A DNA stretch of 64,000 bases, taken from NCBI GenBank assembly GCA_009838035.1, contig VXSK01000030.1, positions 8,683-72,682 of the forward strand, written 5' to 3'. Source of the DNA: Gammaproteobacteria bacterium. Its GTDB lineage: Bacteria > Pseudomonadota > Gammaproteobacteria > Steroidobacterales > Foliamicaceae. Below the pieces are notes generated by a model. The model did not search any database. It worked only from the letters and a program-made list of their open reading frames with translations, and had not been told where the DNA came from. Position 1 is the first letter of the stretch. Each line of letters opens with the position of its first letter. The translations under genes and the position numbers were made by a program. Below are positions 454 to 34,222 of the stretch, piece after piece.

Positions 454-476
454 TGCCTAGTGACCGAAGGCAACAC

Positions 477-1376
477 ATGAGACACATGAGTACGCGGGGC
501 ACGCTTTTGGCCGCCTCGGCCTACCCGATCGTCATGGCTCTGGCATGCGCGTCGTTCGCGGGCTTCTCCCGGCTGGGCCTGATCACCTCGCTGAGCGCAT
601 ACGCAGCCGTGCTGCTTGGAGCGATTCTGATCACCTGGCACGAGCTCAAGCTTCCGTACCGGCGCGACTGGAAGCCGGCCGCGCCGGAGGTAGGCGTTGA
701 CGCCATGTTTCTGGGCGCGGTGCAGATCGGCGTGCCCCTGCTCCTGAGCGTTACGCTGGTGGTGGAGCTGGCGGACTGGTTGCGCGCCCAGGGTCTCGTC
801 GCAGCGGATTTCTGGCCACATCAATGGCCGGTTTGGGCGCAGGCGGCGCTGATGATGCTGACGGCGGATTTCGGGCGCTACTGGCTGCATCGCGCTTTCC
901 ACAAGTTCTCACCGATGTGGCGGCTGCACGCCGTGCATCATTCGCCGCACCGCTTGTACTGGGTCAACGTCGGCCGGTTTCATCCGCTGGAGAAGGCCAT
1001 CCAGTACTGCCTGGACGCACTGCCGTTCGCGCTGGTCGGCGTTTCCGGCGAAGTCCTGGCGGCGTATTTCGTGTTCTACGCCGTCAACGGCTTCTATCAG
1101 CATTCCAACTGCCTGGTGCGGCTGGGTCCATTGAATTACCTGATAGCCGGGCCCGAGCTTCATCGCTGGCATCACTCCGAATTGCCGGAGGAATCCAACA
1201 ACAACTTCGGAAACAACCTCATCGTGTGGGACCTGCTGTTCGGCACCCGGTTCCTGCCCGAGGAACGAGAGGTCGGGCCGCTGGGCCTGGTGAACCGCGC
1301 ATATCCGATGGGGTTCTGGGCGCAGATGCGAACTCCCTTCATGCCGGACATTGAAAGCGCTGCCGGCGACCAGTGA
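477..1376 (+). CDS. fatty acid hydroxylase / sterol desaturase family membrane di-iron enzyme
   Basis: In-frame ATG at 477 within ORF 315..1376; the upstream part overlaps the permease. Three histidine boxes are present: HRAFH, HAVHH, HRWHH. TM helices at the N-terminus. Confidence 0.85.
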   Translation: MRHMSTRGTLLAASAYPIVMALACASFAGFSRLGLITSLSAYAAVLLGAILITWHELKLPYRRDWKPAAPEVGVDAMFLGAVQIGVPLLLSVTLVVELADWLRAQGLVAADFWPHQWPVWAQAALMMLTADFGRYWLHRAFHKFSPMWRLHAVHHSPHRLYWVNVGRFHPLEKAIQYCLDALPFALVGVSGEVLAAYFVFYAVNGFYQHSNCLVRLGPLNYLIAGPELHRWHHSELPEESNNNFGNNLIVWDLLFGTRFLPEEREVGPLGLVNRAYPMGFWAQMRTPFMPDIESAAGDQ

Positions 1377-3034: not shown

Positions 3035-3051
3035 AGGCCCGGCGGCCGTCC

Positions 3052-4170
3052 ATGCGTATCGAAAGCGTTGATGTCCGGCGCTTCCCCGTGCCGTTCAGGC
3101 TGGTCTTCCGGCACGCATCGGCAAGCCGCTCGAAAGCCGCCAACGTCATAGTTGCGGCCCGGGGAGCGGAAGGACAAACCGGCTACGGCGAAGGTTGCCC
3201 GCGCGAATACGTGACCGGCGAAACCGTAGAGTCCGCTGCCGCGTTCATCGAGAAGCACAAGCCGTCATTGATTCGGCAAGTTGAGGACCTTGAGGGGCTG
3301 TGCGCATGGATCCGAACACACGGCGATGAAATCGACGCGAACCCCGCCGCCTTCTGCGCGCTGGAGATCGCGGTCCTGGACTTGTTGGGCAAGATTGAGC
3401 AGCAGCCCGTCGAGGGATTGCTCGGCATTTCCCGCTTGAGCGGTACGTTCAGCTACTCGGCTGTCCTAGGCGATGCGTCACTTTCTTCCTTTCAGCAGCA
3501 GGCGGAACAGTACTGGCGAATGGGCTTTCGCGATTTCAAGGTCAAGGTTTCCGGCGACGCGGGGAAGGACCGACGCAAACTGGCGCTGCTGACCTGTCAC
3601 GGCGACCCCGATCTGCGGATTCGGCTTGACGCCAACAACCTGTGGCAGGACGCGGCCGACGCCGTCGGCTACCTGAAGTCCCTGGACGCGCCTGTCTTCG
3701 CCGTCGAAGAGCCGTTGCAGAGCGGAGACCTGGAAGGATTTCGACAGGTGGCCCGGGAATGCGCGGTCAGGATCATTCTGGACGAAAGCCTGGTTCGCGC
3801 CAGGCAGCTGAAGGCGCTGGACGATCCCGAATGCTGGATCGTCAATCTCCGCGTGTCCAAGATGGGCGGAATCACTCGGTCGCTGGAATTGGCGCAAGAG
3901 GCAACGCGGCGGGGGATCGGCCTTATCGTGGGCGCCCAGGTGGGCGAGACCAGCATCTTGACGCGCGCCTCGCTGGCGGTGATGAACGAGTATCGGCAAT
4001 CCCTTGTCGCCGCGGAAGGCGCCTTCGGCACACTTCTGCTGGAGCAGGACCTGACCGAGCCCTGCCTGATGTTCGGCGCCGGCGGAACACTGAACGCGGA
4101 AAACGACCTCGACATCACACGGTCCGGACTCGGGCTACGGATTAACGAAGCTCAACTCACCCCCGTCTGA
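3052..4170 (+). CDS. enolase superfamily enzyme, MLE subgroup (dipeptide epimerase / N-acylamino-acid racemase / OSBS-like)
   Basis: 372 aa. KxK motif (FKVKV), metal ligands in DANNLW, EEPL and LDES, and a second catalytic Lys in VSKMGG. Confidence 0.85.
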   Translation: MRIESVDVRRFPVPFRLVFRHASASRSKAANVIVAARGAEGQTGYGEGCPREYVTGETVESAAAFIEKHKPSLIRQVEDLEGLCAWIRTHGDEIDANPAAFCALEIAVLDLLGKIEQQPVEGLLGISRLSGTFSYSAVLGDASLSSFQQQAEQYWRMGFRDFKVKVSGDAGKDRRKLALLTCHGDPDLRIRLDANNLWQDAADAVGYLKSLDAPVFAVEEPLQSGDLEGFRQVARECAVRIILDESLVRARQLKALDDPECWIVNLRVSKMGGITRSLELAQEATRRGIGLIVGAQVGETSILTRASLAVMNEYRQSLVAAEGAFGTLLLEQDLTEPCLMFGAGGTLNAENDLDITRSGLGLRINEAQLTPV

Positions 4171-13054: not shown

Positions 13055-13131
<77 letters not shown>

Positions 13132-13193
13132 GGCTGGGGCAGATCCAGATAATCGGAGTGGTCGGGCCTTCACGCGGCCTTTCCGCCGCCCCC

Positions 13194-13269
13194 GGGGCTG
13201 TAGCTCAGCCGGGAGAGCGTCTGCTTTGCAAGCAGAAGGTCGTCGGTTCGAACCCGATCAGCTCCACCA
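13194..13269 (+). tRNA. tRNA-Ala (anticodon UGC)
   Basis: 76 nt. Acceptor GGGGCTG/CAGCTCC with the G3:U70 identity pair, anticodon loop TTGCAAG, T-loop GGTTCGAAC, encoded CCA. Confidence 0.97.
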
Positions 13270-13300
13270 GATTCAAACGCGTGGCCTTATCGCCGCGCCG

Positions 13301-13312
13301 CACTTTTACAAA
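13301..13312 (+). promoter_or_regulatory. second boxA-like element in the tRNA-23S spacer
   Basis: CACTTTTACAAA shares the CTTTTACAA core with the leader element at 12984-12992. E. coli also has a spacer boxA. Confidence 0.35.
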
Positions 13313-13457
13313 CAGGATTGTTCCATTGCAAAACAAGGCGGGTCCGGCTCCCAATGGGCAGGATTCGCTTGCAATGTTGAACTTGTGGGAACTGCATTCG
13401 CGTGGTTATTTCAAGCGCCCCGAACAGTCTCCTTGAGGGGAATGTTTCGGGTGACGT

Positions 13458-16373
<2,916 letters not shown>

Positions 16374-16482
16374 GCGTCACACCGAAGCATTCCCACTTGA
16401 GAGGGCGTCCCGCCCTCCTGGAATCAACATTGCATGGAACAATCCTGGGCGCGTCCCCGATTGAGGGACGCGCCACCTTTTT

Positions 16483-16601
16483 CGCCTGGTGGCAATAGCG
16501 GACGGGTCCCACCCGATTCCATTCCGAACTCGGAAGTGAAAACGTCCAGCGCCGATGGTAGTTCGGGGTCTCCCCGCGCGAGAGTAGGTCACCGCCAGGC
16601 A
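16483..16601 (+). rRNA. rrf: 5S ribosomal RNA
   Basis: cgcctggtggc...cccacccgattccattccgaactcggaagtgaaa...gatggtagt...ggtctccccgcgcgagagtaggtcaccgccaggca is collinear with E. coli 5S. Confidence 0.95.
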
Positions 16602-20328: not shown

Positions 20329-23300
20329 ATGGCGACGCGCAAATCATCTTCTTCGGCCCGACCTGCCGTATCCGAAGTTCCCGGAACGGAATATCCCGGA
20401 TCCGGCGAACCGATCGCCGTGGTGGGCATGGCCTGCCGTTTTCCGGGCGCGCTGGATATTGGTTCCTTTTGGCAGCTGCTCAAGGATGGCGGCAACTCCA
20501 TAAGCGAATGGGTCCCTGGTTCGGGGCACGAACGCTTCAGCCAACTCTTTCCCGACGAGGCGGTGCGTAGCGAAGGCTGCCGCTTCGGCGCATTTGTTGA
20601 CGACATCGACCAGTTCGACGACTCGTTCTTCCGCATATCTCCGGTCGAAGCATCCCTGCTGGATCCGCAGCAGCGGATGATGCTGGAGACGAGCTGGCAG
20701 GCGCTCGAGGATGCCGGCATCGACCCCGACCGGCTCAGGGAGAGCCGAACCGGCGTCTATACCGGGATCAGCAACGACGAGTATCGAATGCTGGTCGTGG
20801 ACTCGAGCAAGCCCGCCGAAGCGGCCTCTTGCCTCTACGCCTTGAGCGGAACCAACCTGAACGGCGCCGCCGGCCGTGTTTCCTTCGTGCTGGGACTGAT
20901 GGGTCCGGCGAAGGCGGTTGACGCTGCCTGCGCCTCATCGCTGGTGTCGATACATGATGCGGTGGCCGATCTGCAGCAGGGCAGGGCGGACCTGGCCATT
21001 GCGGGCGGGGTGCAGGCGATCCTGAACGGCCGGATTTACGAATTGCGCGCCGACGCGATGATGCTGTCCCCCGAGGGGCAGTGCAAGACCTTCGATGCTT
21101 CGGCCGACGGCTATGTTCGCGGCGAAGGCTGCGGCGTCGTTATTCTGAAGCGGCTGAGCGAAGCGGAGGCGGACGGCGACCGGATCTGGGGTGTCATCCG
21201 CGGCTCTGCTGTGAACCACGGCGGCGCCAGCGTCGGCCTGACGGTCCCCAACACGCCGGCGCTGGAGAGGGTGATCGAAGAGGCCCTGTCGCAGGCAGGC
21301 GTCCAGGCTCTGGACGTCGATTACCTGGAAGCGCATGGAACCGGGACCACGGTCGGCGACCCGATCGAAATCGACGCCGTGGCTGCCGTCTACGGCCGGT
21401 CGCGCAAGCCCGACAATCCACTGCTGATCGGTTCGGTAAAGACCAACGTGGGCCACCTGGAGTCGGCGGCGGGGGTGGCGGGGCTGATCAAGGCCGTGCT
21501 GGTCGTGAATCAGGGCGTGATCCCGAAACACCTGCATTTGCGGGACCCCAATCCACGCGTTGACTGGGAAAGCCTGCCGCTGAAGATCACGACGGAAATG
21601 CAGGACTGGCCGGGCAATGGAAGCCGGCCGCGCCTGGCGGGCGTGAACTCCTTCGGGATTTCCGGCACCAATGCTCATCTTGTGGTGGAAGAACACCGGA
21701 GCCCGAACGGAAAGGGCACAGGAGGTCGCGACGGCCTCGCCCCCGGATTGACACGCGACATTGCCGATGTAGCCGGCCCCGCAAACGCGGTTGCCGTTTC
21801 GATGCCCGCAGGCGTTTCGAACCTGGCGGTCCCGGAAGAGCGGCCCACTTCGCGCCGCTCGCGGCTTCTGCCGCTCTCGGCCAAGTCTTCCGCCGCGCTT
21901 GGAGAACTCGCGGCGCGCTACCTGGATTGGATTGCGGAAAGGGAAAACGAGTTTTCTCCCGTCAATGCGGCCCCGGATCCGTTGCTTTCGGACATGGCCT
22001 GGACCGCGAGCGTGGGACGAAGCCACTTCGATGTTCGCGAAGGCGTCGTTTTTAAGGGCGCGGAATCCCTGCGGTCGCGACTGGAAGAGGTGGCCCAGGC
22101 TGATGAGAGACCGGCTGCGCGCGAATCGGCCGCGGTTGCCTTCGCCTACACGGGCCAGGGGAGCCAGTGGACCGGGATGGGGCTTGCGCTCTACGAGAGC
22201 GAGCCGGTTGCGAGGGCGGTATTCGACCGTTGCGAGGCGGTATTCGTCGAGGAGCGGGGCGCTTCCCTTCTGGATCTGATGTTCGGCCGCGATGGCGCGC
22301 AGGGGGACCTTGCCGACACGGCATGGGAGCAGCCGGCGCTCTATGCGCTGGAGTGCGCGCTTACGGCTCTCTGGGCAAGTATCGGTGTTCGGCCGGCCGT
22401 TGTGCTGGGTCACAGCGTCGGCGAACTGGCGGCCGCGCAGGCGGCGGGCGTGTTCAGCCTGGAGGATGGCATGCGCCTTGCCGAAGCGCGGGGCTCGCTG
22501 CTGTCGGCGACCGAACCGGGCGCCATGGCGGCGGTCTTTGCTCCGGCCGAAACGGTTGCCGCCGAGGTGGAATCCGCCAATGCCGCTTCCGGGGGCGTCG
22601 GCGTGAACATTTCCGCCTACAACGGCACGCACCAGGTGGTCAGCGGCGCGATAGCGGAAATCGAAGAGATATCCGGGCGTCTGGAGTCCCAGGGCGTGCG
22701 CGTGCGGCGCCTGAATACCTCCAGGGCCTTTCACAGCGCCCTGATGGAGTCGGCGCTGGATGACCTGGAAGCGGTGCTGGACCGCCTGTCGGTCGAGGAG
22801 CCTGTCGTGAATTTCGTCAGTAACCTGACCGGCCGCGCGCTCGGGGTGGACGAGCGGCTGGACGGCGCCTACTGGAGGCGGCACGCTCGCGAAGCCGTAG
22901 CGTTCGTGGATGGCGTTGACACGCTGGACGGCCTGGGAGTGGACCTGGTCATCGAGATCGGGCCGCGGTCGGTTCTGTCGTCAATGACCTTGTCGGCATG
23001 GCCGGAGTCGTCCAAGTCGCCCGTGCCGGCTGTCTTGGCAAGCCTGCGGCCGCCCGCGGACGGAGCATCACGAACGTCCGACGGCGGGGAATTCACGGAA
23101 GCGGCCGCAGCCGCCTATCAGGCTGGACTGCCGATTCAGTTTTCCGGACTGTTCGCGGGCGAGAACCGGCGCAGGATTTCCCTGCCGGGTTATCCGTTTC
23201 AACGACGCCGTCACTGGCTGGAGGCTCCGGCGAGACGACGAGGGAGCGCAGGCCATCCACTGCTCGGCGTGCGCCGCGAATCGGCGGGCGGCGAAATAAC

Positions 23301-26300
23301 ATTCGAAACCGAACTGTTCCCCTCCGACCCACCCTGGATGAGCGACCATCGGGTGTTCGGCCGCGTTGTGGCGCCGGGCGCGGTATATGGAGCGATGGTG
23401 GCATCGGCAGCGCTTGCGGAGGGCAGCCGGTCGGTGATCGTTGAAGACATGCAACTGCACAATGCGCTCGTGTTCGAGGAGGAGAACGAGGAAGACCCGA
23501 CCGCAGCCGCGAGGACAGTGCAGCTGGCGATCGATGAATCCGGGTCGGCGGCGTCCCGGGCCGTTCGAATCTTCAGCAAAGGCAACGAAGGTGTCTGGAG
23601 CCAGCATATCGAGGGCCGGCTGGCGTCAGCCTCGTCGGCGCCCGGCGAAGGCGAGTCGATCGATCTCGAACAACTCAGGGCCGATCTGAAGGCGGCGGAC
23701 GTTGACGCGTACTACCGGCACAGGGCAAGCACCGGCGTCAATCTCGGACCGTTCTTCCGCACGCTGAAGCAGGTCTGGTCCGGCCCCGGCGAGGCTCTGG
23801 GCGAGGTGTCGCTGCCGGAGGCTTTCGAACGGCACGGCTTGGACGTTCACCCTCTGGTGCTGGACGGTTGCTTCCAGGTGTTCGGCACCGCCCGAAAGTT
23901 CGCGGAGTCCGAGGGCGCCTCCGCCTATCTTCCCTTCGGTTGGGAGCAACTGTGGCTGGCGGGGCGGTTGCCGGACCGCGTGTACTGCCACGTGCGCCTG
24001 AGCGAGGCGTCGCGCGACGCGGATGCGGACCCCGACGCAATGCCGGAGACCCTGAACGGCGAACTTCGAATCTACGACCCGGACGGGTCTCTGCTGGGGC
24101 GACTTAGCGGTTACTCGATCAAGCGGGCGACGCGCGCGGCCCTGCTTTCGGCCATCGAAGGCGTAAACGATCTCCTGTACGAGGTGGAGTGGCGCGAGCA
24201 GCCGCTTCCCCCCGGGATCCTTTCCGCCGATTTCTTTCCCCGGCCCGCGGCTGTCGCAGCCGGCACGCAATTGTTCGCCGATTACCTGCGGGAGGCGGGA
24301 GTCGATCCCGAGGGCCGGAACGATCTGCTTGAGGACCTCGAACAATGGTCGCGTTCGCGCGCGCTTGCCACGCTCGAGGAATTGGGATGGCAGAGGAAGA
24401 CGGGCGACGTCGTCGACTCCGATCAATTGCGGCAGGAAATGGATGTCTTGCCCGAGCACTCGCGCCTGTTCCGCCGCATGTTCGAAATGCTCGCCAGGTC
24501 CGGGGTACTGGAAGAGACCGATGCGGGTTTCCGCGTGCTCCTGGGACCCGAAGATCCCCTGCCCGCCGAGATGCCCAGGGATCTGGATGAATGGGTCGAG
24601 CGGATGAGGGGAACCTATGCCCACGGTCTCACCGAAGTTGGCCTGTTCGAGCGGTCGGGCAAGGCCCTTGGTGACGTGCTTCGCGGCAAGGAGGATGCGC
24701 TTACCCTGCTGTTCAGCAGCGGCGAGCCGACGGCGGCCGACCTGTACCTGAAGGCGCCGGTGGCGCGCGCTGCAAACAGCCTGCTGGGCGAGGCGGTGCG
24801 TGCCCTGGTGGCCGCACTGCCCGGCGATCGGCGCCTGCGGGTGATCGAAGTCGGGGCGGGCACCGGCTCCGCCACCGCTTCGGTGTTGCCGGAGCTTCCC
24901 GAGGGCCGTTTCGATTACGTCTATACCGACATTTCCGCGGGATTCTTTGCCGAAGCGGAAGCGAGGTTCGGCGACGCCGGCGGTTGTATCCGGTATGCGC
25001 CGCTGGACATCGAGAAGGACCCGGTCGCGCAAGGTTACGACCCTCACGGTTACGACCTGATTATTGCCTCGAATGTTCTGCATGCAACGAGATATCTGGA
25101 AGATACACTGACACATTGCCGGGAACTTCTCGCTCCATCGGGGCAGTTGGTCGCGCTGGAGAACCTCACCGGGCTGGGCTGGATGGACCTGACCTTCGGG
25201 CAGCTGGACGGCTGGTGGCGGTTCGCCGACGATTACCGTCCCCACCACGCATTGGCCACTCCGGAGATCTGGAGGCAGGCGCTGGGCGATGCCGGTTTCG
25301 AGGCAGTGGAAGTGCTGGGCGTCAACGAGAACGACCCGAACCGGACCCTGGACAAGGGCGTCATCGTGGCCCAGGGACCCGCGAAGGTGAGCGAACCTCG
25401 GGGCGTTTGGGTGCTGGCCGCGGACGCAGGGGGAGTCGGGGCGGAACTGGCGAGCGACCTGGCCGCGCGCAATCAAACGGTGATGCTGGCCGGCGCGGAT
25501 GCGCCGGCGAACGGGATTCAACCGGGGAACGGACCGGGTGTGTTCGAGACTGCCGTGGAACCGGACGACCGGGATTCCTGGCGCTCGCTGATCGAGAATC
25601 TTCCCGGCGATGTGCCGCTCGGTGGAATCGTGCATCTCGCCGCACTCGACGGCAATGGTGAGCGGGCCCAGACCGAAGCCATGGCGGATGACGTGCGACG
25701 GGCGGGCGCAAGTGCGCTGGCGCTGGTCCAGGGCCTGATCGATTCGGACACGATGCCGGACAGGGGCCTGTGGTTCGTGACCCGCGGCGCGCAGGTCCTG
25801 GAGCGCGAGCGGGGCGGGGAACCCGCGGGCTCTGTACTCTGGGGTTTCGGCAAGGGCGTCGCTCGCGAAGCGCCGCACCTCAAGCCCAGGATGCTCGACC
25901 TCGATCCGGCCCCGGGCGCCGCGTCCGATCTCGTCAATGAACTCATGTATCCGGACCCGGAGGATCACATTGCGCATCGTCGCGGCCGCCGGCTTACGGC
26001 CCGTCTGGTTCGGGAGGGCGCCGGCGCAGAGCGGCTGGAACTGCCCGAGGAGCCGGACTGGGTGCTGGCGCCCGACCCGGACGGCGTTTTCGACAAACCC
26101 TTTGTTCAGACCTTGCCGGAGCGGCCCCTGGAGCCGGACGAGGTCCGGGTGCAGGTAGAGGCCGCCGGGCTCAACTTCTGGGACGTATTCCGGTCGCTCG
26201 GATTCATCGAGGAGGGCATGCTCGGCCGCGAAATGTGCGGTTACGTGCTGGACGTCGGCTCCGACGTGGCCCGCGTGAAGGCCGGCGACCATGTGGTTGG

Positions 26301-29300
26301 AATGGGCTTCGGCGCGTTCGGTGGGGAAATGATCACGCACGGGGAACTCGTCGCTCCTGCGCCGGACGGATTTACGGTGAGCGAACTTGCCACGATCCCC
26401 AGCGCCTACGTTTCGGCTGCGCTGTCCTTCGAGTTCACGGGACTGGAGGCTGGCGAACGGGTCCTGATTCACGCGGGCGCGGGCGGCGTGGGCCTGGCGG
26501 CCATCCAGTGGGTGCAGGCCGCAGGAGCAGAAGTGTTTGCCACCGCCAGTGCGCCCAAGCGGGACTATCTCCGGTCGCTGGGCGTGGAGCACGTCTTTGA
26601 CAGCCGCACGACGGCGTTCGGCGAAGAAATTCTCAAGGCCACCGGCGGCGAGGGCGTCGATGTGGTGCTGAACAGCCTGACGAGCGAAGGCTACATCGAT
26701 GCCAGTCTGGCGTGCCTCAAGCAGGGCGGCCGTTTCGTCGAGATGGCCCGGCGCGACATCCTGAGCGAGGAGGAGATGGCGGCCGTGCGGCCCGACGTGC
26801 CCTACCACATCCTTGAGCTGGACGTATTGAAGAAGACTGAGCCCGCCAGGGTGGGCAAGGTCCTGCGGGGCGTGATGGCGCGCGTTGCGGCGGGCGAGCT
26901 CAAGCCGATCATTCACAGCCGCTGGCCGCTGGCCGAAGCGGGCGCCGCGCTGAGCTTCATGCGCTCGGCCCGGCACCTCGGAAAGATCGTGGCGACAAAC
27001 CCGCCGGTCAAGGACGGCCGCTTGCGGCCGGATCGTACCTACCTGGTGACGGGCGGACTGGGAGGAATCGGTTGCGCGGTGGCGGACTGGCTCGCCGAAA
27101 GGGGCGCGGGGACGATCGTGCTGAACGGACGGCGCGCGCCCGACGAAGCCGCCGAGAAGACCATCGGCGCGCTCAGGGACCGCGGCGTGCGGGTGGAAGT
27201 GGAATTGGCGGATGTTACCGATACGGCGGCGATCGATCGGATGCTGGCCCGCATGGATGACGAACTGGCGCCCCTTGCGGGCGTGATCCACAGCGTGGGC
27301 GTGCTGTCGGACGGCGCGCTCACCAACCAGAGCTGGGAGCGCTTCGAGCAGGTGCTTTGGCCAAAGGTGCTGGGCGCCTGGCATTTGCATCGAGCGACGG
27401 TGGACCGCGATCTGGACATGTTCGTATTGTTCTCGAGCCGCGTGGGCGTGATGGGCAATCCCGGCCAGGCCAACCACGCCGCCGCCAATGCCTTCCTGGA
27501 TCAGCTTGCGGGCCATCGCCGGGCGCTGGGTCTCGCAGGCCAGGCCATCGCCTGGGGCGCCTGGTCGGAGATCGGCGAGGCGGCGGAGCAGCGCGAGCGC
27601 ATAGACAGCCAGCGCTCGGCGCTGGGCGGGCGCTGGTTCACTCCGCAACAGGGCATCAGGGCATTCGATCGTCTGGTGCGCCAGGACGCCACCCATTCCG
27701 TGGTGATGTCCATGGACTGGTCGGTCTTCGCGGAGGCCGTTGAAGAACCGCCGATCCTGGTGGAGGATCTGTTGTCCGCCGCTACCGAGGCGAAGGACGA
27801 TCCCGCGGCAGGGCTGGGCGATCTGCTGTCCATGCTGAGGAGCTCACCCGCTGCGGCTCATGAAGACCTGCTGGCTTCTTTTCTGCAAAACGAAGTGCAG
27901 GCAGTACTGAGACTGCCGTCGGCGCCAGCGCCCACGGTCGGGTTCTTCGATCTCGGGATGGACTCGCTGATGGCGGTGGAACTCCGCAACCGGGTGAACC
28001 GGGCGTTCGCCGGGGAGTACGTGGCGTCCAACACCGCGGTTTTCGACTATCCGGACATCACCCAATTTGCGGCTCATGTAGCCGAACAGCTCGGCGACCT
28101 GGGGACCGCACCCGCGCCCGCTCCGGCGGCTGCCTCGGCACCCGCTCCCGCACCCGCGCCTCAAGCCGAGCCGCAGCCGGAACCTCGCCGGCGAGCGGAG
28201 CCGGATCCGCAACCCGCAGCCACGGCGCCGCGCGAAGAAGAAGGCATTGCCATTGTGGGCATGGCCTGCCGTTTTCCGGGGGCGCCGGACCTTGCGGCAT
28301 TCTGGCGCCAGCTCGAAGGCGGCGGCACCGGAATTACCGACGGCCGAGCGGGTTCAGGTCCCTGGTCCGATAGCGCGCGAGATTTGCCGCGCGAGTTCGC
28401 TGCCTACCGCAAGGGCGGGTTCGTGGACGAGATCGACAAGTTCGACGCGAGGTTCTTCCGGATTGCGCCGATCGAGGCGCGCATGCTGGACCCGCGCCAG
28501 CGAATGCTGCTGGAGACGAGTTGGCAGGCCCTGGAAGATGCCGGAATGGACTCGGACCGCTTGCGGGGAAGCCGCACCGGGATCTACGTCGGACTGGCTT
28601 CGAGCGAGTACCGGGATCTGATGAAGTCCGGCGAAAGAGGCGTGAGCTACCTGGGCACCGCCACCAGCATGACGGTGGGCCGGGTTGCCTATCATCTGGG
28701 TCTGGAAGGCCCGGCGGTTCCGGTGGAACTGAACTGCGCGTCGTCGCTGATTGCCGCGCACCAGGCGGTTATGGCCCTGCGCTATGGCGAAGTGGACCAG
28801 GCCCTCGTGGGTGGCGTGAACACGCTGCTTTCGCCCGCCGTGACCCGGGAGATGGCGGAGCTGGGCATGTTGTCGCGCCACGGTCAATGCAAGGCCTTCG
28901 ATGCTTCCGCGGACGGTTTTGTAAGAAGCGAAGGCTGCGGCATGCTGGTTCTGAAACGGCTCGATGAAGCCGAGGCCGACGGCGACCGCATCTGGGGCGT
29001 GATCCGCGGCTCGGCGGTCAACCAAAACGGGGCCAGCGCAGGTCCCACAACGCCCAATGGCCAGGCCCAGCAACGGGTCATCGAGACGGCGCTTTCCAGG
29101 GCGAACATGGCGCCGTCGGCGGTGGACTACCTGGAGGCGCATGGAGCCGGCTCGGCCCTGGGAGACCCGATCGAAGTGCAGGCCGCGGCGGCGGTCTATG
29201 GAAGGGGACGCGAGTCCGACAGGCCGCTGCTGATCGGCTCGGTGAAAGCGAACATCGGCCATCTCGAAGCGGCTGCCGGCGTGGCCGGCCTGATCAAGGC

Positions 29301-30099
29301 CGTGCTGGCGATGCAGCGCGGGATGATTCCCCGCCAGTTGCACTTCAACACCCCGAATCCGAACCTCGAATGGGACGAGCTTCCGGTACGTGTCGTTTCA
29401 GGCGCGACGCCCTGGCCCGGCCATTCCGAACGGCCGCCCAGGTCGGGCGTGAGCGCATTCGGTATATCGGGAACGAACGCACATGTCGTGCTGGAGGGGC
29501 ACGCCGCCAACGGGACGGGTCCCGGCGGCGCGATCGATCCCGCGGGCGCCCCGATACGCGTGTCCGTTTCCGAGTCGGAGCGTTCGGGGGACCTCGAGCA
29601 GTCGCGCGGCGAAGGTCCCGACGACCGGATCGCCAGGATGCTTCCGCTTTCGGGCAAGTCGGAGGACGCCCTTCGGCAGTTGTCGGAGCGGTATCTCGAA
29701 TGGCTCGACCGGCGTTCGCAAGAGATCTCTTCCGACGTGGACATGGATGCCCTTCTGGCCGACATGGCATGGACGGCGGCCGTGGGACGGACTCATTTCG
29801 ATTGCCGGGCCGGCCTGGTATTCGAGGATGCCGAATCGTTGCGGCAGGAACTCAAGTCGCTCGCAAACGGCGGCGACCGGGGAGGACAACAAGCCGTTGG
29901 GGCGTCGCCGGCAACCGGAGTCGAGGCGGAAAACGCTCCCGACTCCGGGAATGGCCGCTCGATTGTCGAGACGGCTGCGAAGGCGTACGAGGACGGGCTG
30001 GCCGTTTCCTTCGAGAGCCTCTTTGCCGGAGAAGAGCGCCGCCGCATTTCGCTGCCGGGTTATCCTTTCCAGCGCCGAAGCTACTGGATCAATTCCTAG
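20329..30099 (+). CDS. type I polyketide synthase, KS-AT-DH-cMT-psiKR-ER-KR-ACP-KS-(AT-less linker)
   Basis: 3256 aa. Approximate domain coordinates read from motifs:
- KS1 20413-21693: Cys codon 20929 in DAACASSL; HGTGT; GHLESAAG.
- AT 22138-22990: GHSVG with Ser codon 22414; RAFHS at 22723.
- DH 23254-24140: HPLLG, HRVFGRVVAPG, LDGCFQ.
- C-methyltransferase about 24640-25375: VIEVGAGTGS.
- psiKR about 25390-26000.
- ER about 26100-27000: LIHAGAGGVGLAAIQ.
- KR about 27036-27620: YLVTGGLGGIGCAV.
- ACP 27880-28095: LGMDSLMAVEL, Ser codon 27964.
- Ala/Pro linker 28096-28236.
- KS2 28245-29500: Cys codon 28735; HGAGS; GHLEAAAG.
- KS-AT linker remnant with post-AT motif YPFQRRSYW, 29620-30096. 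Confidence 0.97.
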   Translation: MATRKSSSSARPAVSEVPGTEYPGSGEPIAVVGMACRFPGALDIGSFWQLLKDGGNSISEWVPGSGHERFSQLFPDEAVRSEGCRFGAFVDDIDQFDDSFFRISPVEASLLDPQQRMMLETSWQALEDAGIDPDRLRESRTGVYTGISNDEYRMLVVDSSKPAEAASCLYALSGTNLNGAAGRVSFVLGLMGPAKAVDAACASSLVSIHDAVADLQQGRADLAIAGGVQAILNGRIYELRADAMMLSPEGQCKTFDASADGYVRGEGCGVVILKRLSEAEADGDRIWGVIRGSAVNHGGASVGLTVPNTPALERVIEEALSQAGVQALDVDYLEAHGTGTTVGDPIEIDAVAAVYGRSRKPDNPLLIGSVKTNVGHLESAAGVAGLIKAVLVVNQGVIPKHLHLRDPNPRVDWESLPLKITTEMQDWPGNGSRPRLAGVNSFGISGTNAHLVVEEHRSPNGKGTGGRDGLAPGLTRDIADVAGPANAVAVSMPAGVSNLAVPEERPTSRRSRLLPLSAKSSAALGELAARYLDWIAERENEFSPVNAAPDPLLSDMAWTASVGRSHFDVREGVVFKGAESLRSRLEEVAQADERPAARESAAVAFAYTGQGSQWTGMGLALYESEPVARAVFDRCEAVFVEERGASLLDLMFGRDGAQGDLADTAWEQPALYALECALTALWASIGVRPAVVLGHSVGELAAAQAAGVFSLEDGMRLAEARGSLLSATEPGAMAAVFAPAETVAAEVESANAASGGVGVNISAYNGTHQVVSGAIAEIEEISGRLESQGVRVRRLNTSRAFHSALMESALDDLEAVLDRLSVEEPVVNFVSNLTGRALGVDERLDGAYWRRHAREAVAFVDGVDTLDGLGVDLVIEIGPRSVLSSMTLSAWPESSKSPVPAVLASLRPPADGASRTSDGGEFTEAAAAAYQAGLPIQFSGLFAGENRRRISLPGYPFQRRRHWLEAPARRRGSAGHPLLGVRRESAGGEITFETELFPSDPPWMSDHRVFGRVVAPGAVYGAMVASAALAEGSRSVIVEDMQLHNALVFEEENEEDPTAAARTVQLAIDESGSAASRAVRIFSKGNEGVWSQHIEGRLASASSAPGEGESIDLEQLRADLKAADVDAYYRHRASTGVNLGPFFRTLKQVWSGPGEALGEVSLPEAFERHGLDVHPLVLDGCFQVFGTARKFAESEGASAYLPFGWEQLWLAGRLPDRVYCHVRLSEASRDADADPDAMPETLNGELRIYDPDGSLLGRLSGYSIKRATRAALLSAIEGVNDLLYEVEWREQPLPPGILSADFFPRPAAVAAGTQLFADYLREAGVDPEGRNDLLEDLEQWSRSRALATLEELGWQRKTGDVVDSDQLRQEMDVLPEHSRLFRRMFEMLARSGVLEETDAGFRVLLGPEDPLPAEMPRDLDEWVERMRGTYAHGLTEVGLFERSGKALGDVLRGKEDALTLLFSSGEPTAADLYLKAPVARAANSLLGEAVRALVAALPGDRRLRVIEVGAGTGSATASVLPELPEGRFDYVYTDISAGFFAEAEARFGDAGGCIRYAPLDIEKDPVAQGYDPHGYDLIIASNVLHATRYLEDTLTHCRELLAPSGQLVALENLTGLGWMDLTFGQLDGWWRFADDYRPHHALATPEIWRQALGDAGFEAVEVLGVNENDPNRTLDKGVIVAQGPAKVSEPRGVWVLAADAGGVGAELASDLAARNQTVMLAGADAPANGIQPGNGPGVFETAVEPDDRDSWRSLIENLPGDVPLGGIVHLAALDGNGERAQTEAMADDVRRAGASALALVQGLIDSDTMPDRGLWFVTRGAQVLERERGGEPAGSVLWGFGKGVAREAPHLKPRMLDLDPAPGAASDLVNELMYPDPEDHIAHRRGRRLTARLVREGAGAERLELPEEPDWVLAPDPDGVFDKPFVQTLPERPLEPDEVRVQVEAAGLNFWDVFRSLGFIEEGMLGREMCGYVLDVGSDVARVKAGDHVVGMGFGAFGGEMITHGELVAPAPDGFTVSELATIPSAYVSAALSFEFTGLEAGERVLIHAGAGGVGLAAIQWVQAAGAEVFATASAPKRDYLRSLGVEHVFDSRTTAFGEEILKATGGEGVDVVLNSLTSEGYIDASLACLKQGGRFVEMARRDILSEEEMAAVRPDVPYHILELDVLKKTEPARVGKVLRGVMARVAAGELKPIIHSRWPLAEAGAALSFMRSARHLGKIVATNPPVKDGRLRPDRTYLVTGGLGGIGCAVADWLAERGAGTIVLNGRRAPDEAAEKTIGALRDRGVRVEVELADVTDTAAIDRMLARMDDELAPLAGVIHSVGVLSDGALTNQSWERFEQVLWPKVLGAWHLHRATVDRDLDMFVLFSSRVGVMGNPGQANHAAANAFLDQLAGHRRALGLAGQAIAWGAWSEIGEAAEQRERIDSQRSALGGRWFTPQQGIRAFDRLVRQDATHSVVMSMDWSVFAEAVEEPPILVEDLLSAATEAKDDPAAGLGDLLSMLRSSPAAAHEDLLASFLQNEVQAVLRLPSAPAPTVGFFDLGMDSLMAVELRNRVNRAFAGEYVASNTAVFDYPDITQFAAHVAEQLGDLGTAPAPAPAAASAPAPAPAPQAEPQPEPRRRAEPDPQPAATAPREEEGIAIVGMACRFPGAPDLAAFWRQLEGGGTGITDGRAGSGPWSDSARDLPREFAAYRKGGFVDEIDKFDARFFRIAPIEARMLDPRQRMLLETSWQALEDAGMDSDRLRGSRTGIYVGLASSEYRDLMKSGERGVSYLGTATSMTVGRVAYHLGLEGPAVPVELNCASSLIAAHQAVMALRYGEVDQALVGGVNTLLSPAVTREMAELGMLSRHGQCKAFDASADGFVRSEGCGMLVLKRLDEAEADGDRIWGVIRGSAVNQNGASAGPTTPNGQAQQRVIETALSRANMAPSAVDYLEAHGAGSALGDPIEVQAAAAVYGRGRESDRPLLIGSVKANIGHLEAAAGVAGLIKAVLAMQRGMIPRQLHFNTPNPNLEWDELPVRVVSGATPWPGHSERPPRSGVSAFGISGTNAHVVLEGHAANGTGPGGAIDPAGAPIRVSVSESERSGDLEQSRGEGPDDRIARMLPLSGKSEDALRQLSERYLEWLDRRSQEISSDVDMDALLADMAWTAAVGRTHFDCRAGLVFEDAESLRQELKSLANGGDRGGQQAVGASPATGVEAENAPDSGNGRSIVETAAKAYEDGLAVSFESLFAGEERRRISLPGYPFQRRSYWINS

Positions 30100-30176
30100 T
30101 ACCGCGCGGGTTGTGAGAATTCGAGTATGATTGCGCCCGCATCCGAAACAACTTTTGATTAGGGGGACCTATCACC

Positions 30177-30422
30177 ATGGCTTCAACTGCGGAAAGAATC
30201 AAGGCGCTGGTAGACGACAACATCGAGGTGGACGGCCAGGCGCTGGATATTCCGGACGACATGAACTTCAGCCTCGCGGCTGCCGGCGTTTCGTCCATGG
30301 ACCTGGTTGCTCTGGGCAAGCTGATTGCCAGCGAGTTCGGCATCACCTTTACGCTGGACGATTGCGCCGCACTCGACAACCTCACCAAGGTTGTTGCATT
30401 CGTAGACAGCAAGGCTGCGTAG
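30177..30422 (+). CDS. stand-alone acyl carrier protein
   Basis: 81 aa, acidic, four-helix ACP pattern with a phosphopantetheine Ser candidate in AAGVSSMDLVALGKLI. RBS AGGGGGA is 10 nt upstream. Confidence 0.85.
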   Translation: MASTAERIKALVDDNIEVDGQALDIPDDMNFSLAAAGVSSMDLVALGKLIASEFGITFTLDDCAALDNLTKVVAFVDSKAA

Positions 30423-30499
30423 CTGCCTGGAGAAAGACCGGCAGGACCAGACGTATTTCTTCCGTTCTGCCGGCAATTTAGCGCGGAGCCGGCGCGGCC

Positions 30500-31432
30500 T
30501 TGCCTGAGCAAGCCGACGGACTGACGCGCCTGTACAAGTCGCGCTGGGCGCTGCCCAGGCCGCATTCCACCCACAATGTGCAAGTGGACGATGACACGGT
30601 CATCGTCCTCAGGCGCCATGGCAATCCGGATGGCGCCCGGCTCATACTGACTCACGGCAACGGCCTTGCGATCGACTTGTACTATCCCTTCTGGTCGCTG
30701 CTTACCGATGAGTTCGATATCGTCGTCCATGACCTGAGGAACCACGGCTGGAATGAGGTCAGCGCGCCGGACAGGCACAACATGCCCACGCTGGCCGACG
30801 ATCAGGACCGCATTCTGGAAGCGGTCAACTCGACCTACGGAGAGAAACCCGCGGTTGGGATATTCCATTCCCTGGCGGCGCTGGCCGCGCTGCTGTCGCC
30901 CGCAAAGGGCCGGGACTACGCGGGCCTGGTGCTGTTCGATCCGCCGCTTTGCAAGGCCGGCCGCAGCTACTTCGACTTCGATGCCGCGGCGACGCAGAAC
31001 GCCGCCCAGGTCCGCCGGCGCACCGAGCACTTCGCCACGCTGCGGGAGTTTGACGAGTTGCTTGCGATCGTTCCCCTGTACCGGCAGGCGCTGCCCGGCG
31101 TCCACAGGCTGCTGGCCGACACGACGCTGCGTCGGCGCTCCGGCGGCGACGGCTACGAATTGCGCTGCCCGCGCGACTATGAAGCGCAGATCGTCGAATA
31201 TGCCTCGGTCTTTGCGGTGACCATCAATTTCGACTCATTCCATTGTCCGATCAAGGTGATCGGCGCGGACCCCACACTGCCCTACTCGTACCTGCCGAGC
31301 ATGGACCTGAGCCACATCCTGAGCGTGGACTACGACTTTATTCCGGACGCCACCCATTTCCTGCAGGTCGAAAAGCCGGACGAGTGCGTGGCCTCGATGC
31401 GCGGCTTCCTCAACGAGATTTCATTCGACTGA
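30500..31432 (+). CDS. alpha/beta-fold hydrolase (candidate thioesterase / release enzyme)
   Basis: 310 aa from a TTG start (start uncertain). HGNG oxyanion region, nucleophile elbow GIFHSLAA, Asp in LFDPP, His in DATHF. Confidence 0.75.
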   Translation: MPEQADGLTRLYKSRWALPRPHSTHNVQVDDDTVIVLRRHGNPDGARLILTHGNGLAIDLYYPFWSLLTDEFDIVVHDLRNHGWNEVSAPDRHNMPTLADDQDRILEAVNSTYGEKPAVGIFHSLAALAALLSPAKGRDYAGLVLFDPPLCKAGRSYFDFDAAATQNAAQVRRRTEHFATLREFDELLAIVPLYRQALPGVHRLLADTTLRRRSGGDGYELRCPRDYEAQIVEYASVFAVTINFDSFHCPIKVIGADPTLPYSYLPSMDLSHILSVDYDFIPDATHFLQVEKPDECVASMRGFLNEISFD

Positions 31433-32119
31433 AACTTCGTGCGCGACGGCCGCGGCGAATTCGGGGTTACCGATATTCTCCAGCCGCCAGCGCACCTCGG
31501 GCAGGTGCGGAAAGCGAAACTCGCACAGCCGCTTTCCATTGCACATGGCCGCAGGGATCTCGAATTCGGAAATGTGAAGCTGGAAGCCGGTGCCCAGCGC
31601 CTTGACCAGCGCTTCCTTCATCGTCCACAGGCGAAAGAAAAGCTGCCGCCTGCGGTTCGCGCCGGCGCCGGCCAGCCGCGACTGTTCCGCCGGAGTGAGC
31701 GTCTCGCCGATAAGCACGTCCAGGTTGCGGCGAGCGCTTCGCGGTTCCACGTCCACGCCCAGCCTGCCGCGCCCGGCCAGCGCAATCAGCCCATGGCGTC
31801 CGCTGTGACTGACGCTGAAACTGACGGAAGCCGGCTGCCCGCGCACGATCGCCGCCGGCTTCCCATGCTCCCCTTCCTCGAAAGTCAATTCCTCGTTCGG
31901 GCAAGCCAGCCGTTGGCAGAGGATCGCCCGAAGCGCGCCCCTGCATAGGGCAAACTCGCGCTGCGGCGCATCAGCGCGGAAGCGGCTCCAGCGGGCCTGC
32001 TCCTCTTCATCCAGCAACCGGAACGCCTGCCGCTCCCGCTCGGACCGAGGTGAAAGATCAACGTGTACGACATCCGCGTCCCCGGCCGCGCGAAAGGGAC
32101 GCCACCAGCGATTACTCAA
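31421..32119 (-). CDS. Sfp-type 4'-phosphopantetheinyl transferase
   Basis: Motifs GKPAA, FSVSHSG, GVDVE and WTMKEALVKALG. There is no ATG in the relevant region. TTG at 32119 gives 232 aa with the usual N-terminus (...VVHVDL...LLDEEEQARWSRF). The longer ORF to 32665 would run across the divergent gene. The 3' end overlaps the hydrolase gene by 12 nt. Confidence 0.8.
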   Translation of the reverse strand: MSNRWWRPFRAAGDADVVHVDLSPRSERERQAFRLLDEEEQARWSRFRADAPQREFALCRGALRAILCQRLACPNEELTFEEGEHGKPAAIVRGQPASVSFSVSHSGRHGLIALAGRGRLGVDVEPRSARRNLDVLIGETLTPAEQSRLAGAGANRRRQLFFRLWTMKEALVKALGTGFQLHISEFEIPAAMCNGKRLCEFRFPHLPEVRWRLENIGNPEFAAAVAHEVSVE

Positions 32120-32122
32120 TAT

Positions 32123-32139
32123 AATTGGCCGCGCCAATT
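32123..32139. promoter_or_regulatory. perfect 7-3-7 palindrome in the divergent PPTase / SnoaL promoter region (candidate operator)
   Basis: AATTGGC-cgc-GCCAATT lies between the PPTase start (32119) and the SnoaL gene start (32186). Confidence 0.3.
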
Positions 32140-32185
32140 CTAGTGTCGTGTCCCGCGTAAAGGACTGAATTCTACTGGAGCTCGC

Positions 32186-33184
32186 ATGAACGAGATCGCG
32201 AACGCCAAGGCCCTGGTATTGGGCTATTTCGACGAATTCGAGAAAGCCGGTGTGGACGGCATCGAGTCCGTCATAGCTCGCCGCAGCGCCGGGAACCTGC
32301 GCTTTCGGGGCGTGCATCCCTTCAACGAGATTCAGGGTGCGGGCGACATCGCCGAGAAGGTCTGGCGTCCCTTGCGGGAGGCGTTTCCCCGCATGCAGCG
32401 GCGCCAGGAGATTTTCATGGCGGGTCCCAACTGGATCGACGGGACCCTGTGGGTGTCCAGCATGGGGAAGTTTTTCGGCTTGTTCGACAATAACTGGCTG
32501 GGCATTCCTTCCACCGGCAAGATCGCCATGCTTCCGTATTGCGAGTTCTTTCGAATCGACGACGGCAGGATCGCGGAAACCGCGCTTTTCTGCGACATCG
32601 TCAGCGTGATGCAGCAAGCGGGCCTGAACCCGCTGCCGATACAGACCGGCTCCGGCATTCTCCATCCGCCGCCGCGCACGCAGGACGGCCTGCTGTTCGA
32701 ACCCCAGGCAGAAGAGGAATCGAAAAAGACCCTGGAGCTGATCCTGCGCATGTGCGACGACCTGGTCGTCAAGGACGGATGGCAGTCGCCGAATTCATCG
32801 CTGGCTTCCACCTGGCACGACGACATGATCTGGTTCGGACCGGCCGGCATCGGTTCGACCTATACGATCGAGCGCTACCAGGTGCAGCACCAGGGTCCGT
32901 TCCGGGCCGGCCTGGACGACATCGTGTTCAACGGCCACGTCCTGGAGCACGCCGAGGGCTGCTACGGCGGCTGGTTCGGATGGGCCAACCTGAGCCTAAA
33001 GCAGGGCGACGGATTTATGGGCTTGCCGGCGTCCGAGCGGCCGACCGAGATGCGCGTGGTCGATATGTACCGGCGCGAGGGAGACAAGCTCGCGGAGAAC
33101 TGGGTATTCATCGACATGCTCCACTACCTACTGCCGCTGGGCGTGGACCTGCTCGAGCGTTGCCGCTCCATCACCCGCACCTGA
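32186..33184 (+). CDS. double SnoaL-like (NTF2-fold polyketide/ester cyclase-like) protein
   Basis: 332 aa. Two SnoaL-type halves each end with the signature G-x-F-x-G-[IL]-P-x-[TS]-[GE]-[KR]...[FM]-x-R-x-x-[DG]-G-[RK]-[IL]-x-E-x-W...D. The halves are WLGIPSTGKIAMLPYCEFFRIDDGRIAE and FMGLPASERPTEMRVVDMYRREGDKLAENWVFID. Confidence 0.75.
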   Translation: MNEIANAKALVLGYFDEFEKAGVDGIESVIARRSAGNLRFRGVHPFNEIQGAGDIAEKVWRPLREAFPRMQRRQEIFMAGPNWIDGTLWVSSMGKFFGLFDNNWLGIPSTGKIAMLPYCEFFRIDDGRIAETALFCDIVSVMQQAGLNPLPIQTGSGILHPPPRTQDGLLFEPQAEEESKKTLELILRMCDDLVVKDGWQSPNSSLASTWHDDMIWFGPAGIGSTYTIERYQVQHQGPFRAGLDDIVFNGHVLEHAEGCYGGWFGWANLSLKQGDGFMGLPASERPTEMRVVDMYRREGDKLAENWVFIDMLHYLLPLGVDLLERCRSITRT

Positions 33185-34222
33185 ATGCGCATCGCCACCG
33201 AAACCACGCTGCGCAACAAGCAGCGTTACGCAGAGCTTGTCGCCGACTACGCGGATTGCGACTCCGCCCGCATTCGTTCAGCCCTGAAGGAGTTCCTGCA
33301 TCCCGATGTGGCGGTGAATGTCGTGCAGCCGATCAACAGGGTGGCGGGCGCTCAACAGTTCCTTGAACGGGTGATGGAACCGCTTCTGCATTCCTTCCGG
33401 CACCTGCACCGGCGCAGCGACATGCTGTTCGGCGGCGAACACGAGGGCGCCGAGTGGGTGGTCAGCCACGGCCACTACATAGGCGAATTCGTCGACGACT
33501 GGCTGGGCATTCCCGCGAATGGCCAGCCCGTCTGGCTGCATTACGCGGAATTCCACCGGATGGAGGCGGGCCGTTCGGTCGAGTGCTACCTCTATATCGA
33601 CATGCTGGATTTCCTGCGGCAGCTGGGAAGATGGCCTCTTCCTGCCAGTGTCGGACATGAAGGGTTCGTTCCGGGGCCTGCGACGGGCGATGGAATGCTG
33701 CTGTCGGCACAGGATCCGGAACGGTCACGCCTGAGCCTCAAGACGGTCGAGGACATGCTCGCCGAACTCTGGACCGAAGAAGAGGGCTGGCGACCCTACT
33801 GGCACCGCAACATGTGCTGGTACGGCCCTTCCGGCTACGGCAGTTACTTCGGCCTGGAGGGCTTCTGCCGGTTTCAGCAACCCTACGAAGGGATCTTCGA
33901 GCCCGGCCGGTTCTCCAGCGCCTTCCGCAAGTCCGGCGATGCGCGACTCGACGGACAAGTCAAAGGGCATTACGCCCGTTTCGCCGACGGCGCGTACGTG
34001 GCTTGCGGAGGCTGGCCATCGCACGGGGGCTTCATGGTCCGCCCCTGGCTGGGCGTCGAGGGCAAGGGACAGATGTTCACCGTTCGCCTCTGCGACTTAT
34101 GGCGCAGAAGCGGTAACGTGCTGGTCGAAAACTGGGTGCTCATCGACCTGATCGACATGCTCCTGCAACTCGACTTCGACGTATTCCGCGAGGCCGGCAT
34201 CGAACTTCAGATCAGATCGTAG
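33185..34222 (+). CDS. double SnoaL-like (NTF2-fold cyclase-like) protein, paralog of the preceding gene
   Basis: 345 aa. The ATG directly abuts the upstream TGA. Motifs WLGIPANGQPVWLHYAEFHRMEAGRSVE and WLGVEGKGQMFTVRLCDLWRRSGNVLVENWVLID. Confidence 0.75.
   Translation: MRIATETTLRNKQRYAELVADYADCDSARIRSALKEFLHPDVAVNVVQPINRVAGAQQFLERVMEPLLHSFRHLHRRSDMLFGGEHEGAEWVVSHGHYIGEFVDDWLGIPANGQPVWLHYAEFHRMEAGRSVECYLYIDMLDFLRQLGRWPLPASVGHEGFVPGPATGDGMLLSAQDPERSRLSLKTVEDMLAELWTEEEGWRPYWHRNMCWYGPSGYGSYFGLEGFCRFQQPYEGIFEPGRFSSAFRKSGDARLDGQVKGHYARFADGAYVACGGWPSHGGFMVRPWLGVEGKGQMFTVRLCDLWRRSGNVLVENWVLIDLIDMLLQLDFDVFREAGIELQIRS

Follow-up and report, generated by a model that had tools for sequence, protein, structure and literature searches.

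Does the 9.8-kb polyketide synthase (PKS) gene of a gammaproteobacterial contig belong to a pathway of its own, or is it a copy of something already known? The gene lies in a 64,000-nt stretch of contig VXSK01000030.1 (assembly GCA_009838035.1), from a Gammaproteobacteria bacterium placed in the family Foliamicaceae. This whole stretch is called the window here, and all coordinates are positions in it. The feature under study was initially taken as 20329-34222, where the original prediction saw an orphan locus that fitted no described bacterial pathway. Our analysis indicates, with high confidence, that the locus is a cluster of the sup type (sup, sponge symbiont ubiquitous PKS), matched to SupA-E by description. 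The sup-type family is known and named, so the locus is not a new kind of pathway. It was filed as sup-type because its architecture, the recurring five-gene set and the spread among sponges fit the published descriptions of sup.

Identity of the locus and its recurring partner genes

The large gene (20329..30099, plus strand) encodes a supA-type monomodular type I PKS of 3256 aa, as judged from its Pfam string, its motifs and homologous loci. The open reading frame (ORF) is intact. Its domains are a first ketosynthase (KS1), an acyltransferase (AT), a dehydratase (DH), a C-methyltransferase (cMT), an enoylreductase (ER), a ketoreductase (KR), an acyl carrier protein (ACP) and a second ketosynthase (KS2), in the order KS1-AT-DH-cMT-(psiKR)-ER-KR-ACP-KS2 followed by an AT-less linker, where psiKR denotes a pseudo-KR. 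The domain calls of the original prediction, KS-AT-DH-cMT-ER-KR-ACP with a second KS, were supported by Pfam hidden Markov models, including those for the cMT, the ER and KS2. The architecture KS-AT-DH-MT-ER-KR-ACP-KS (MT, methyltransferase) is common to every complete homologous locus, so that the monomodular, MT-bearing PKS of sup is found by Pfam both here and in all complete homologues. SupA of the cluster described by Fieseler and colleagues reportedly has the same string, KS-AT-DH-MT-ER-KR-ACP plus an extra KS, and SupB, SupC and SupD are said to be an ACP, a 4'-phosphopantetheinyl transferase (PPTase) and a hydrolase.

Counterparts of these partners lie directly downstream. A free-standing, supB-like ACP of 81 aa (30177..30422, plus strand), with its Ser in GVSSMD, gives weak matches to PP-binding and to the NCBIfam acyl-carrier-protein model (AcpP). 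It adjoins the PKS in many phyla, and its Ser is conserved in the homologues. The supD-like alpha/beta hydrolase (310 aa; 30500..31432, plus strand; Pfam Abhydrolase_6) carries Ser124/Asp257/His286, which are invariant among its homologues. More than 2400 of these homologues were found at ~60-95% identity, annotated as Gammaproteobacteria, Chloroflexi and Acidobacteriota, and the homologue loci in those phyla always combine a PKS (~3430 aa, same Pfam string) with an 81-aa ACP, a PPTase and the hydrolase. In these loci, a xanthine/uracil-family permease gene follows that cassette on the opposite strand. The supC-like gene of the window encodes an Sfp/HetI-type PPTase (31421..32137, minus strand; Pfam ACPS and AASDHPPT_N; NCBIfam HetI and AcpT) and probably starts at a TTG at 32119 or 32137. 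It is convergent with the hydrolase gene, which it overlaps by 12 bp, and other phyla likewise have it beside the PKS. The adjacency of ACP, PPTase and hydrolase expected of sup is thus present, and the same three recur across phyla. One homologue of the hydrolase (P0157, 541 aa) fuses PPTase and alpha/beta hydrolase domains, which supports a functional tie between the two.

To place the locus among its relatives, the alignment of the MT region was scanned against one genome per GTDB species, which gave 425 relatives. Phylum make-up, locus comparisons and whole-protein comparisons refer to the best 80 of these; for neighbour-gene counts, the ORFs of these 80 loci and of the window (81 sources) were clustered. 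The partners that recur beside the PKS across phyla were the hydrolase (51 of 81 sources), the permease (39) and the PPTase (22), plus the small ACP, and no other partner recurred across phyla in this clustering. The clustering of the flanks independently recovers the five-gene set. A PhyH gene, considered as a further partner, lies near two loci and was not recurrent.

The window copy is an unusual member of the family, in that the hydrolase precedes the PPTase, the PPTase is inverted and the permease is missing. In sister metagenome-assembled genomes (MAGs), supA and the ACP gene are separated by a SupE-like permease gene (L012, 11237-12937; L013, 15466-17166; L082, 13589-15289); in the window (30100-30176) and in the sister loci L014 and L015, the two genes are just 77 bp apart. 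Because the permease is present in 39 sources, sister MAGs included, it is a variable accessory gene that was lost or never gained in the window copy. Besides the permease and the position and strand of the PPTase, the window copy differs from the sup cluster in its deleted, elsewhere decayed, second AT (see below) and in its gammaproteobacterial host. Such losses might suggest that the locus is a relic of horizontal transfer that no longer functions and is decaying: the window lineage lacks both the permease and the AT remnant, its PPTase is inverted, and the GC content of the PKS region exceeds that of the flanks. Against this, the 9.8-kb ORF is intact with all its catalytic residues conserved, and the entire PKS shares 89-94% identity with those of four sister MAGs, which makes a relic extremely improbable.

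Relatives in sponge microbiomes and comparison with known systems

The best 80 relatives are all MAGs, belong to at least 10 phyla and in many cases bear sponge-project bin names. They comprise Gammaproteobacteria, Alphaproteobacteria, Gemmatimonadota (including Ca. Palauibacter irciniicola and Ca. P. rhopaloidicola), Latescibacterota, Acidobacteriota, Chloroflexota, Rhodothermales, Opitutales, Nitrospira, Acidimicrobiia and Ca. Poriferisodalis. Across these phyla the MT region is 77-95% identical, and the whole PKS proteins (>3,200 aa; L012-L091) share a mean identity of 71% (range 61-94%). Members of six phyla or classes share one similarity cluster, and the PKSs of three gammaproteobacterial lineages are split over three clusters. 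This grouping of the PKSs, partly against taxonomy, together with ~71% identity over at least 10 phyla, points to a family spread by repeated horizontal transfer among sponge symbionts.

A sponge origin, expected of a sup cluster, is indicated for many of the relatives and for the window host, which we regard as a sponge-associated gammaproteobacterium. Relatives come from RHO, COS, APA and SB06xx bins, the last of which we take to be from Aplysina aerophoba, and the two Ca. Palauibacter species and Ca. Poriferisodalis are among them. The second of two SnoaL proteins encoded downstream of the PPTase has an exact match on ENA contig ENGE20-1_SAMN12347678_METAG-scaffold_309, whose ENGE20-1 label presumably stands for the Engelberts 2020 sponge study. 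The MT region is closest, at 94-95% identity, to the Gammaproteobacteria MAGs RHO1_bin_71, COS2_bin_9 and CO36388bin_2. Sponge hosts sampled in one study include Rhopaloeides odorabile, Coscinoderma matthewsi, Aplysina and Ircinia (PMC8163846). The prefixes RHO and COS fit Rhopaloeides odorabile and Coscinoderma matthewsi, the link from sample label to study being our own.

Sup genes (Fieseler et al. 2007, Appl Environ Microbiol 73:2144) encode unusually small monomodular type I PKSs and dominate the KS amplicons of high-microbial-abundance sponges (PMC3908369, PMC4245539, PMC9864124). Mid-chain methyl-branched fatty acids are their proposed, not demonstrated, product (PMC4245539, PMC9864124), and SupE is a permease (PMC3908369). 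The window locus resembles the sup cluster in having a small type I PKS of one module that includes a methyltransferase, in its ACP, PPTase and hydrolase genes, joined elsewhere by the permease, and in belonging to a type that is very common and spread over many sponge-associated lineages. Its KS1 also carries DPQQR and HGTGT, the primer-target motifs for sup amplification. Contrary to the view that no described bacterial pathway matches, the locus therefore fits sup, which is among the commonest PKS loci of sponge microbiomes.

Another monomodular, fatty acid synthase (FAS)-like type I PKS, that of the swf cluster, is likewise widespread in sponge symbionts. SwfA has the string KS-AT-DH-ER-KR-ACP with no MT, its KS motifs are DPQ[I/V]R and HATGT, and swfB and swfC encode a reductase plus sulfotransferase and a radical S-adenosylmethionine (SAM) protein, respectively (PMC3908369). 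SwfA differs further in having no terminal KS. An swf identity was excluded by the MT of the window PKS and by the DPQQR/HGTGT motifs of its KS1, and no swfB- or swfC-like genes were seen among the Pfam-scanned neighbours in the window.

The best-scoring solved structure is that of the mycobacterial mycocerosic acid synthase (MAS; PDB 9d2y, 9d2z, 5bp4; 1e-248), an iterative maker of methyl-branched fatty acids from a fatty-acyl primer. Like the window PKS, MAS is a fully reducing KS-AT-DH-ER-KR-ACP enzyme. It differs in that its methyl groups come from methylmalonyl-CoA and not from a SAM-dependent MT, in having neither a terminal KS nor a partner ACP, and in keeping the KR Tyr. Classification as a MAS-like iterative PKS was rejected in view of the malonyl-type AT (GHS[VI]G/[KR]AFH), the MT, His2383 in the KR and the extra KS.

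The megasynthase had also been likened to mammalian FAS and fungal highly reducing PKSs. The order of condensing and modifying domains is indeed shared with LovB and animal FAS, and LovB has its cMT between DH and ER. In sequence, however, the window PKS is closer to MAS and CurL: the KS-AT of CurL scores 7.5e-204, and LovB (PDB 7cpx, 4e-178) and animal FAS (PDB 2vz8, 2e-145) rank below these bacterial PKSs. Neither LovB nor animal FAS carries a second KS at its C-terminus: the last domain is condensation-like in the former and a thioesterase in the latter. A fungal or animal affinity was rejected on the PDB ranking, the C-terminal KS2 and the fact that all homologues are bacterial MAGs. KS-AT-DH-cMT-ER-KR-ACP is an ordinary order for bacterial cis-AT modules, as in the curacin and jamaicamide synthases. 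These modules share the domain order and, in CurL, a similar KS-AT, but they are parts of long assembly lines, whereas the window PKS is a lone module with an AT-less KS.

Domains and proposed working of the synthase

Residue conservation was assessed in 56 full-length PKS homologues and, for the KR, in 24 fragments as well. All domains are encoded on the plus strand. Pfam finds two ketoacyl-synt/Ketoacyl-synt_C pairs, the first from aa 27 and the second ending at aa 3006. KS1 (aa 27-450; 20407..21678) carries Cys201/His336/His376, retained in 55-56 of the 56 homologues, besides its DPQQR and HGTGT motifs; it begins at aa 27, and a loading module is absent, as had been predicted. The AT (Acyl_transf_1, aa 605-912; 22141..23064) shows GHSVG and RAFH, in line with the malonyl type called earlier, and both Ser696 and the xAFH His are invariant. 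In the DH (PKS_DH_N/PS-DH, aa 976-1272; 23254..24144), His1007 lies in HxxxGxxxxP and Asp1179 in DxxxQ. The SAM-dependent cMT (Methyltransf_12/23, aa 1489-1661; 24793..25311) is intact, as first read, with VIEVGAGTG, His1585 in NVLHAT and Glu1611. The ER (ADH_N/ADH_zinc_N, aa 1936-2221; 26134..26991) has the NADPH motif HAGAGGVG, and the catalytic residues of DH and ER are invariant. Apart from the KR Tyr, the catalytic residues of the PKS are conserved throughout the 56 homologues. Conservation of whole domains is highest in MT, ER and KR, with mean pairwise identities of 0.82-0.84 (0.83 for the cMT). The integrated ACP (PP-binding, aa 2519-2584; 27883..28080) carries Ser2546.

From the presence and conservation of these catalytic residues we infer the following working, which we consider probable, though far from certain, for a four-gene sup-type cluster at 20329 to ~32137. 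The PPTase would convert both carrier proteins to their holo forms. Direct priming of KS1 by an acyl thioester of primary metabolism is proposed because there is no loading module, and the single AT (AT1) would load malonate. The cMT would methylate the alpha-carbon with SAM, and KR, DH and ER would reduce the chain fully, giving a methyl-branched saturated acyl-ACP; this methylating, reducing round could run once or iteratively. KS2 would then condense the chain with malonyl on the free ACP, itself loaded in trans by AT1 or FabD, at a stage that has no reductive domains. The hydrolase might cleave the resulting beta-ketoacyl-ACP, or type II fatty-acid synthesis might take it over. The latter route would put the methyl branch mid-chain and agree with the published product proposal. 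Much of the chemistry first suggested for the locus, a methylated, reduced chain extended by KS2 on the free ACP and released by the hydrolase, is thus consistent with the conservation in the 56 homologues; the cyclisation that went with it did not hold (see below).

The KR (aa 2237-2414; 27037..27570), called in the original prediction, is not canonical. The domain is present, with Lys2346, Ser2370 and Asn2387, but the catalytic Tyr is replaced by His2383 (nt 27475-27477), which aligns with the catalytic Tyr of the MAS and AmphB KR structures. At this position of the motif G-Q-x-x-Y-A-A-A-N, His was found in 56/56 full-length homologues and 24/24 fragments. The KR may accordingly be inactive or repurposed, and the product something other than a fatty acid: an alpha-methyl-beta-keto intermediate, turned after KS2 into a 1,3-dicarbonyl or triketide-type chain, which the hydrolase would set free as a methyl ketone, a pyrone or a similar small polyketide. 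This would suit the invariant His as well as a second condensing stage without reductive domains. However, the KR is the most conserved domain of all (mean pairwise identity 0.84) and keeps its NADPH motif, Lys, Ser and Asn, and the invariant DH and ER residues would be pointless without ketoreduction. We consider a non-fatty-acid product unlikely.

KS2 (aa ~2637-3060; 28237..29508), called from Pfam and motifs, is ~55% identical to KS1. As predicted, this terminal KS is catalytically complete (Cys2803/His2938/His2978). It is universal in the homologues, with the Cys in 56/56 and the two His in 53/56 and 56/56, and its conservation is 0.69 vs 0.80 for KS1 (mean pairwise identity). A homology search with the KS2 region returned matches that are all ≤1145 aa, with uninformative names. 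That KS2 has no AT or ACP behind it proved right, but a KS-AT linker and a post-AT linker do follow it (29509..30096; KAsynt_C_assoc, CurL-like_PKS_C, RhiE-like_linker; C-terminal alignment), the PKS ending in 'LPGYPFQRRSYWINS*' with no AT body.

Comparison of C-terminal regions (L010, L016, L017, L026, L034, L050, L057, L064 and L085) revealed a decayed post-KS2 AT. Most lineages have an AT-sized region behind KS2 in which the GHSxG Ser is substituted (GQGVG, GHDVG, GHGSG and others) and the small subdomain is missing. In the window lineage and in L037 the remnant is fully deleted, and the linkers alone persist. Matches to 'AT' in tblastn had raised the suspicion of a second active AT behind KS2; it was rejected, given the missing GHSxG Ser and small subdomain and its absence from the window. 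To judge from these alignments, KS2 and the free ACP resemble what is left of a second, non-reducing module, which would have to borrow an acyltransferase, its own having decayed or been deleted.

The order of the two condensing stages might also be the reverse. KS2 and the free ACP would then prime a starter, for example from acyl-CoA and malonyl-ACP, which KS1 would elongate iteratively, and the hydrolase would release a multi-methyl-branched acid from the integrated ACP in the manner of MAS. A loading module is indeed missing, the closest solved structure is that of the iterative MAS, gene and domain order need not match reaction order, and KS2 is less conserved than KS1. On the other hand, KS2 comes directly after the integrated ACP and an Ala/Pro-rich linker, as is usual for a downstream module, and module 1 would have to reduce in trans a beta-keto starter carried by a separate ACP. 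We judge the reversed order improbable.

Several points nevertheless weigh against the locus being a sup cluster that works as proposed. The match to sup was made by description. No 'SupB/D/E' names occur in the 90% clusters of the ACP, hydrolase and permease from SB06xx bins, which bear generic MAG annotations only. The permease of sup has no homologue in the window. In the literature searched, no report of an experimentally proven sup product was found; the word 'orphan' in the original prediction is apt in this sense, but not for the family, which already has a name. For the hydrolase, sequence searches of PDB and NCBIfam gave weak generic matches and no close characterised relative. Its AlphaFold model is mediocre (pLDDT 62.6), and its Foldseek matches are alpha/beta hydrolases of a generic kind, among which the curacin thioesterase ranks sixth; the model is compatible with a thioesterase and not diagnostic of one. 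Full reduction is not assured, because the KR His stands for the catalytic Tyr.

In view of the invariant KR His and the universal second condensing stage, there is a lesser but real chance that Sup synthases are not simple methyl-branched fatty-acid synthases and that their chemistry has gone unrecognised. Candidates may include a His-dependent ketoreduction, the hand-off of a methylated primer to type II FAS, or a beta-keto or methyl-ketone product.

Neighbouring SnoaL genes and meaning for the family

Beyond the PPTase lie two ORFs with two SnoaL stretches each by Pfam (32186-33184 and 33185-34222). They were originally counted with the cluster as cyclases, so that 20329-34222 would be one undescribed pathway in which the double-SnoaL proteins cyclise the beta-keto product of KS2. 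They do adjoin the PPTase gene, with ~50-70 bp between the divergent starts, and the sister MAGs (L012-L015, L082) show the same arrangement. Only in this window lineage, however, do SnoaL genes lie next to the PKS: none was found beside it in the other 75 loci. Homologues of the pair at 71%, 63% and 48% identity have no PKS, ACP, hydrolase or PPTase nearby; their loci hold an SSF symporter, a TonB-dependent receptor or ABC transporter, further SnoaL genes, and histidinol-dehydrogenase-like and MetE-like genes. In the window, the SnoaL block runs on downstream to ~48 kb, and the family to which the PKS belongs has a description of its own, as sup. By comparative context, the cyclase reading is largely refuted, and we give it very little credence. 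The SnoaL genes are bystanders, part of a neighbouring locus as its gene content suggests, and the PKS feature therefore ends at the PPTase, at ~32137 and not at 34222. All the downstream genes named at the outset (free ACP, hydrolase, PPTase, two SnoaL pairs) are present, then, but the PPTase lies on the minus strand and the SnoaL pairs stand outside the cluster.

The SnoaL-rich block (window 32186-~48800) comprises four double- or single-SnoaL genes among transport and catabolic genes: an SSF symporter, two TonB-dependent receptors, histidinol-dehydrogenase-like and MetE-like genes, a zinc-ADH, a hydrolase and a bicupin. PKS-free marine genomes and a Tara Oceans contig (L003-L007) show synteny with its core, and some of them have an ABC transporter. 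From this gene content, the block looks like an uptake or catabolic locus.

Two further observations concern the upstream part of the window. Genes for tRNA-Ile, tRNA-Ala, a full 23S rRNA and 5S rRNA lie at 13055-16600, with no 16S rRNA gene upstream; a TonB-dependent receptor gene stops 170 bp ahead of tRNA-Ile. Either the rRNA operon is of the unlinked kind or the assembly was joined here, and the rRNA and tRNA genes account for the low-GC, high-skew stretch of the window. At 315-3034, ~17 kb upstream of the PKS, a fatty-acid-hydroxylase-family gene lies beside a gene of the GH3 family (acyl-adenylate-forming amido synthetases); no tie between this pair and the PKS cluster was seen.

What appeared to be a striking orphan is thus corrected to a named family, and its adjacent 'cyclases' to bystanders. 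Few biosynthetic loci of sponge microbiomes are commoner than Sup-type clusters, whose product has been proposed and not demonstrated (PMC4245539, PMC9864124). The window copy is a compact, four-gene variant that lacks the permease and the AT remnant, and is nothing categorically new; its compactness could suit heterologous expression. The KR with His for Tyr, the decayed second AT and the ~71% identity over at least 10 phyla provide handles on the Sup product.

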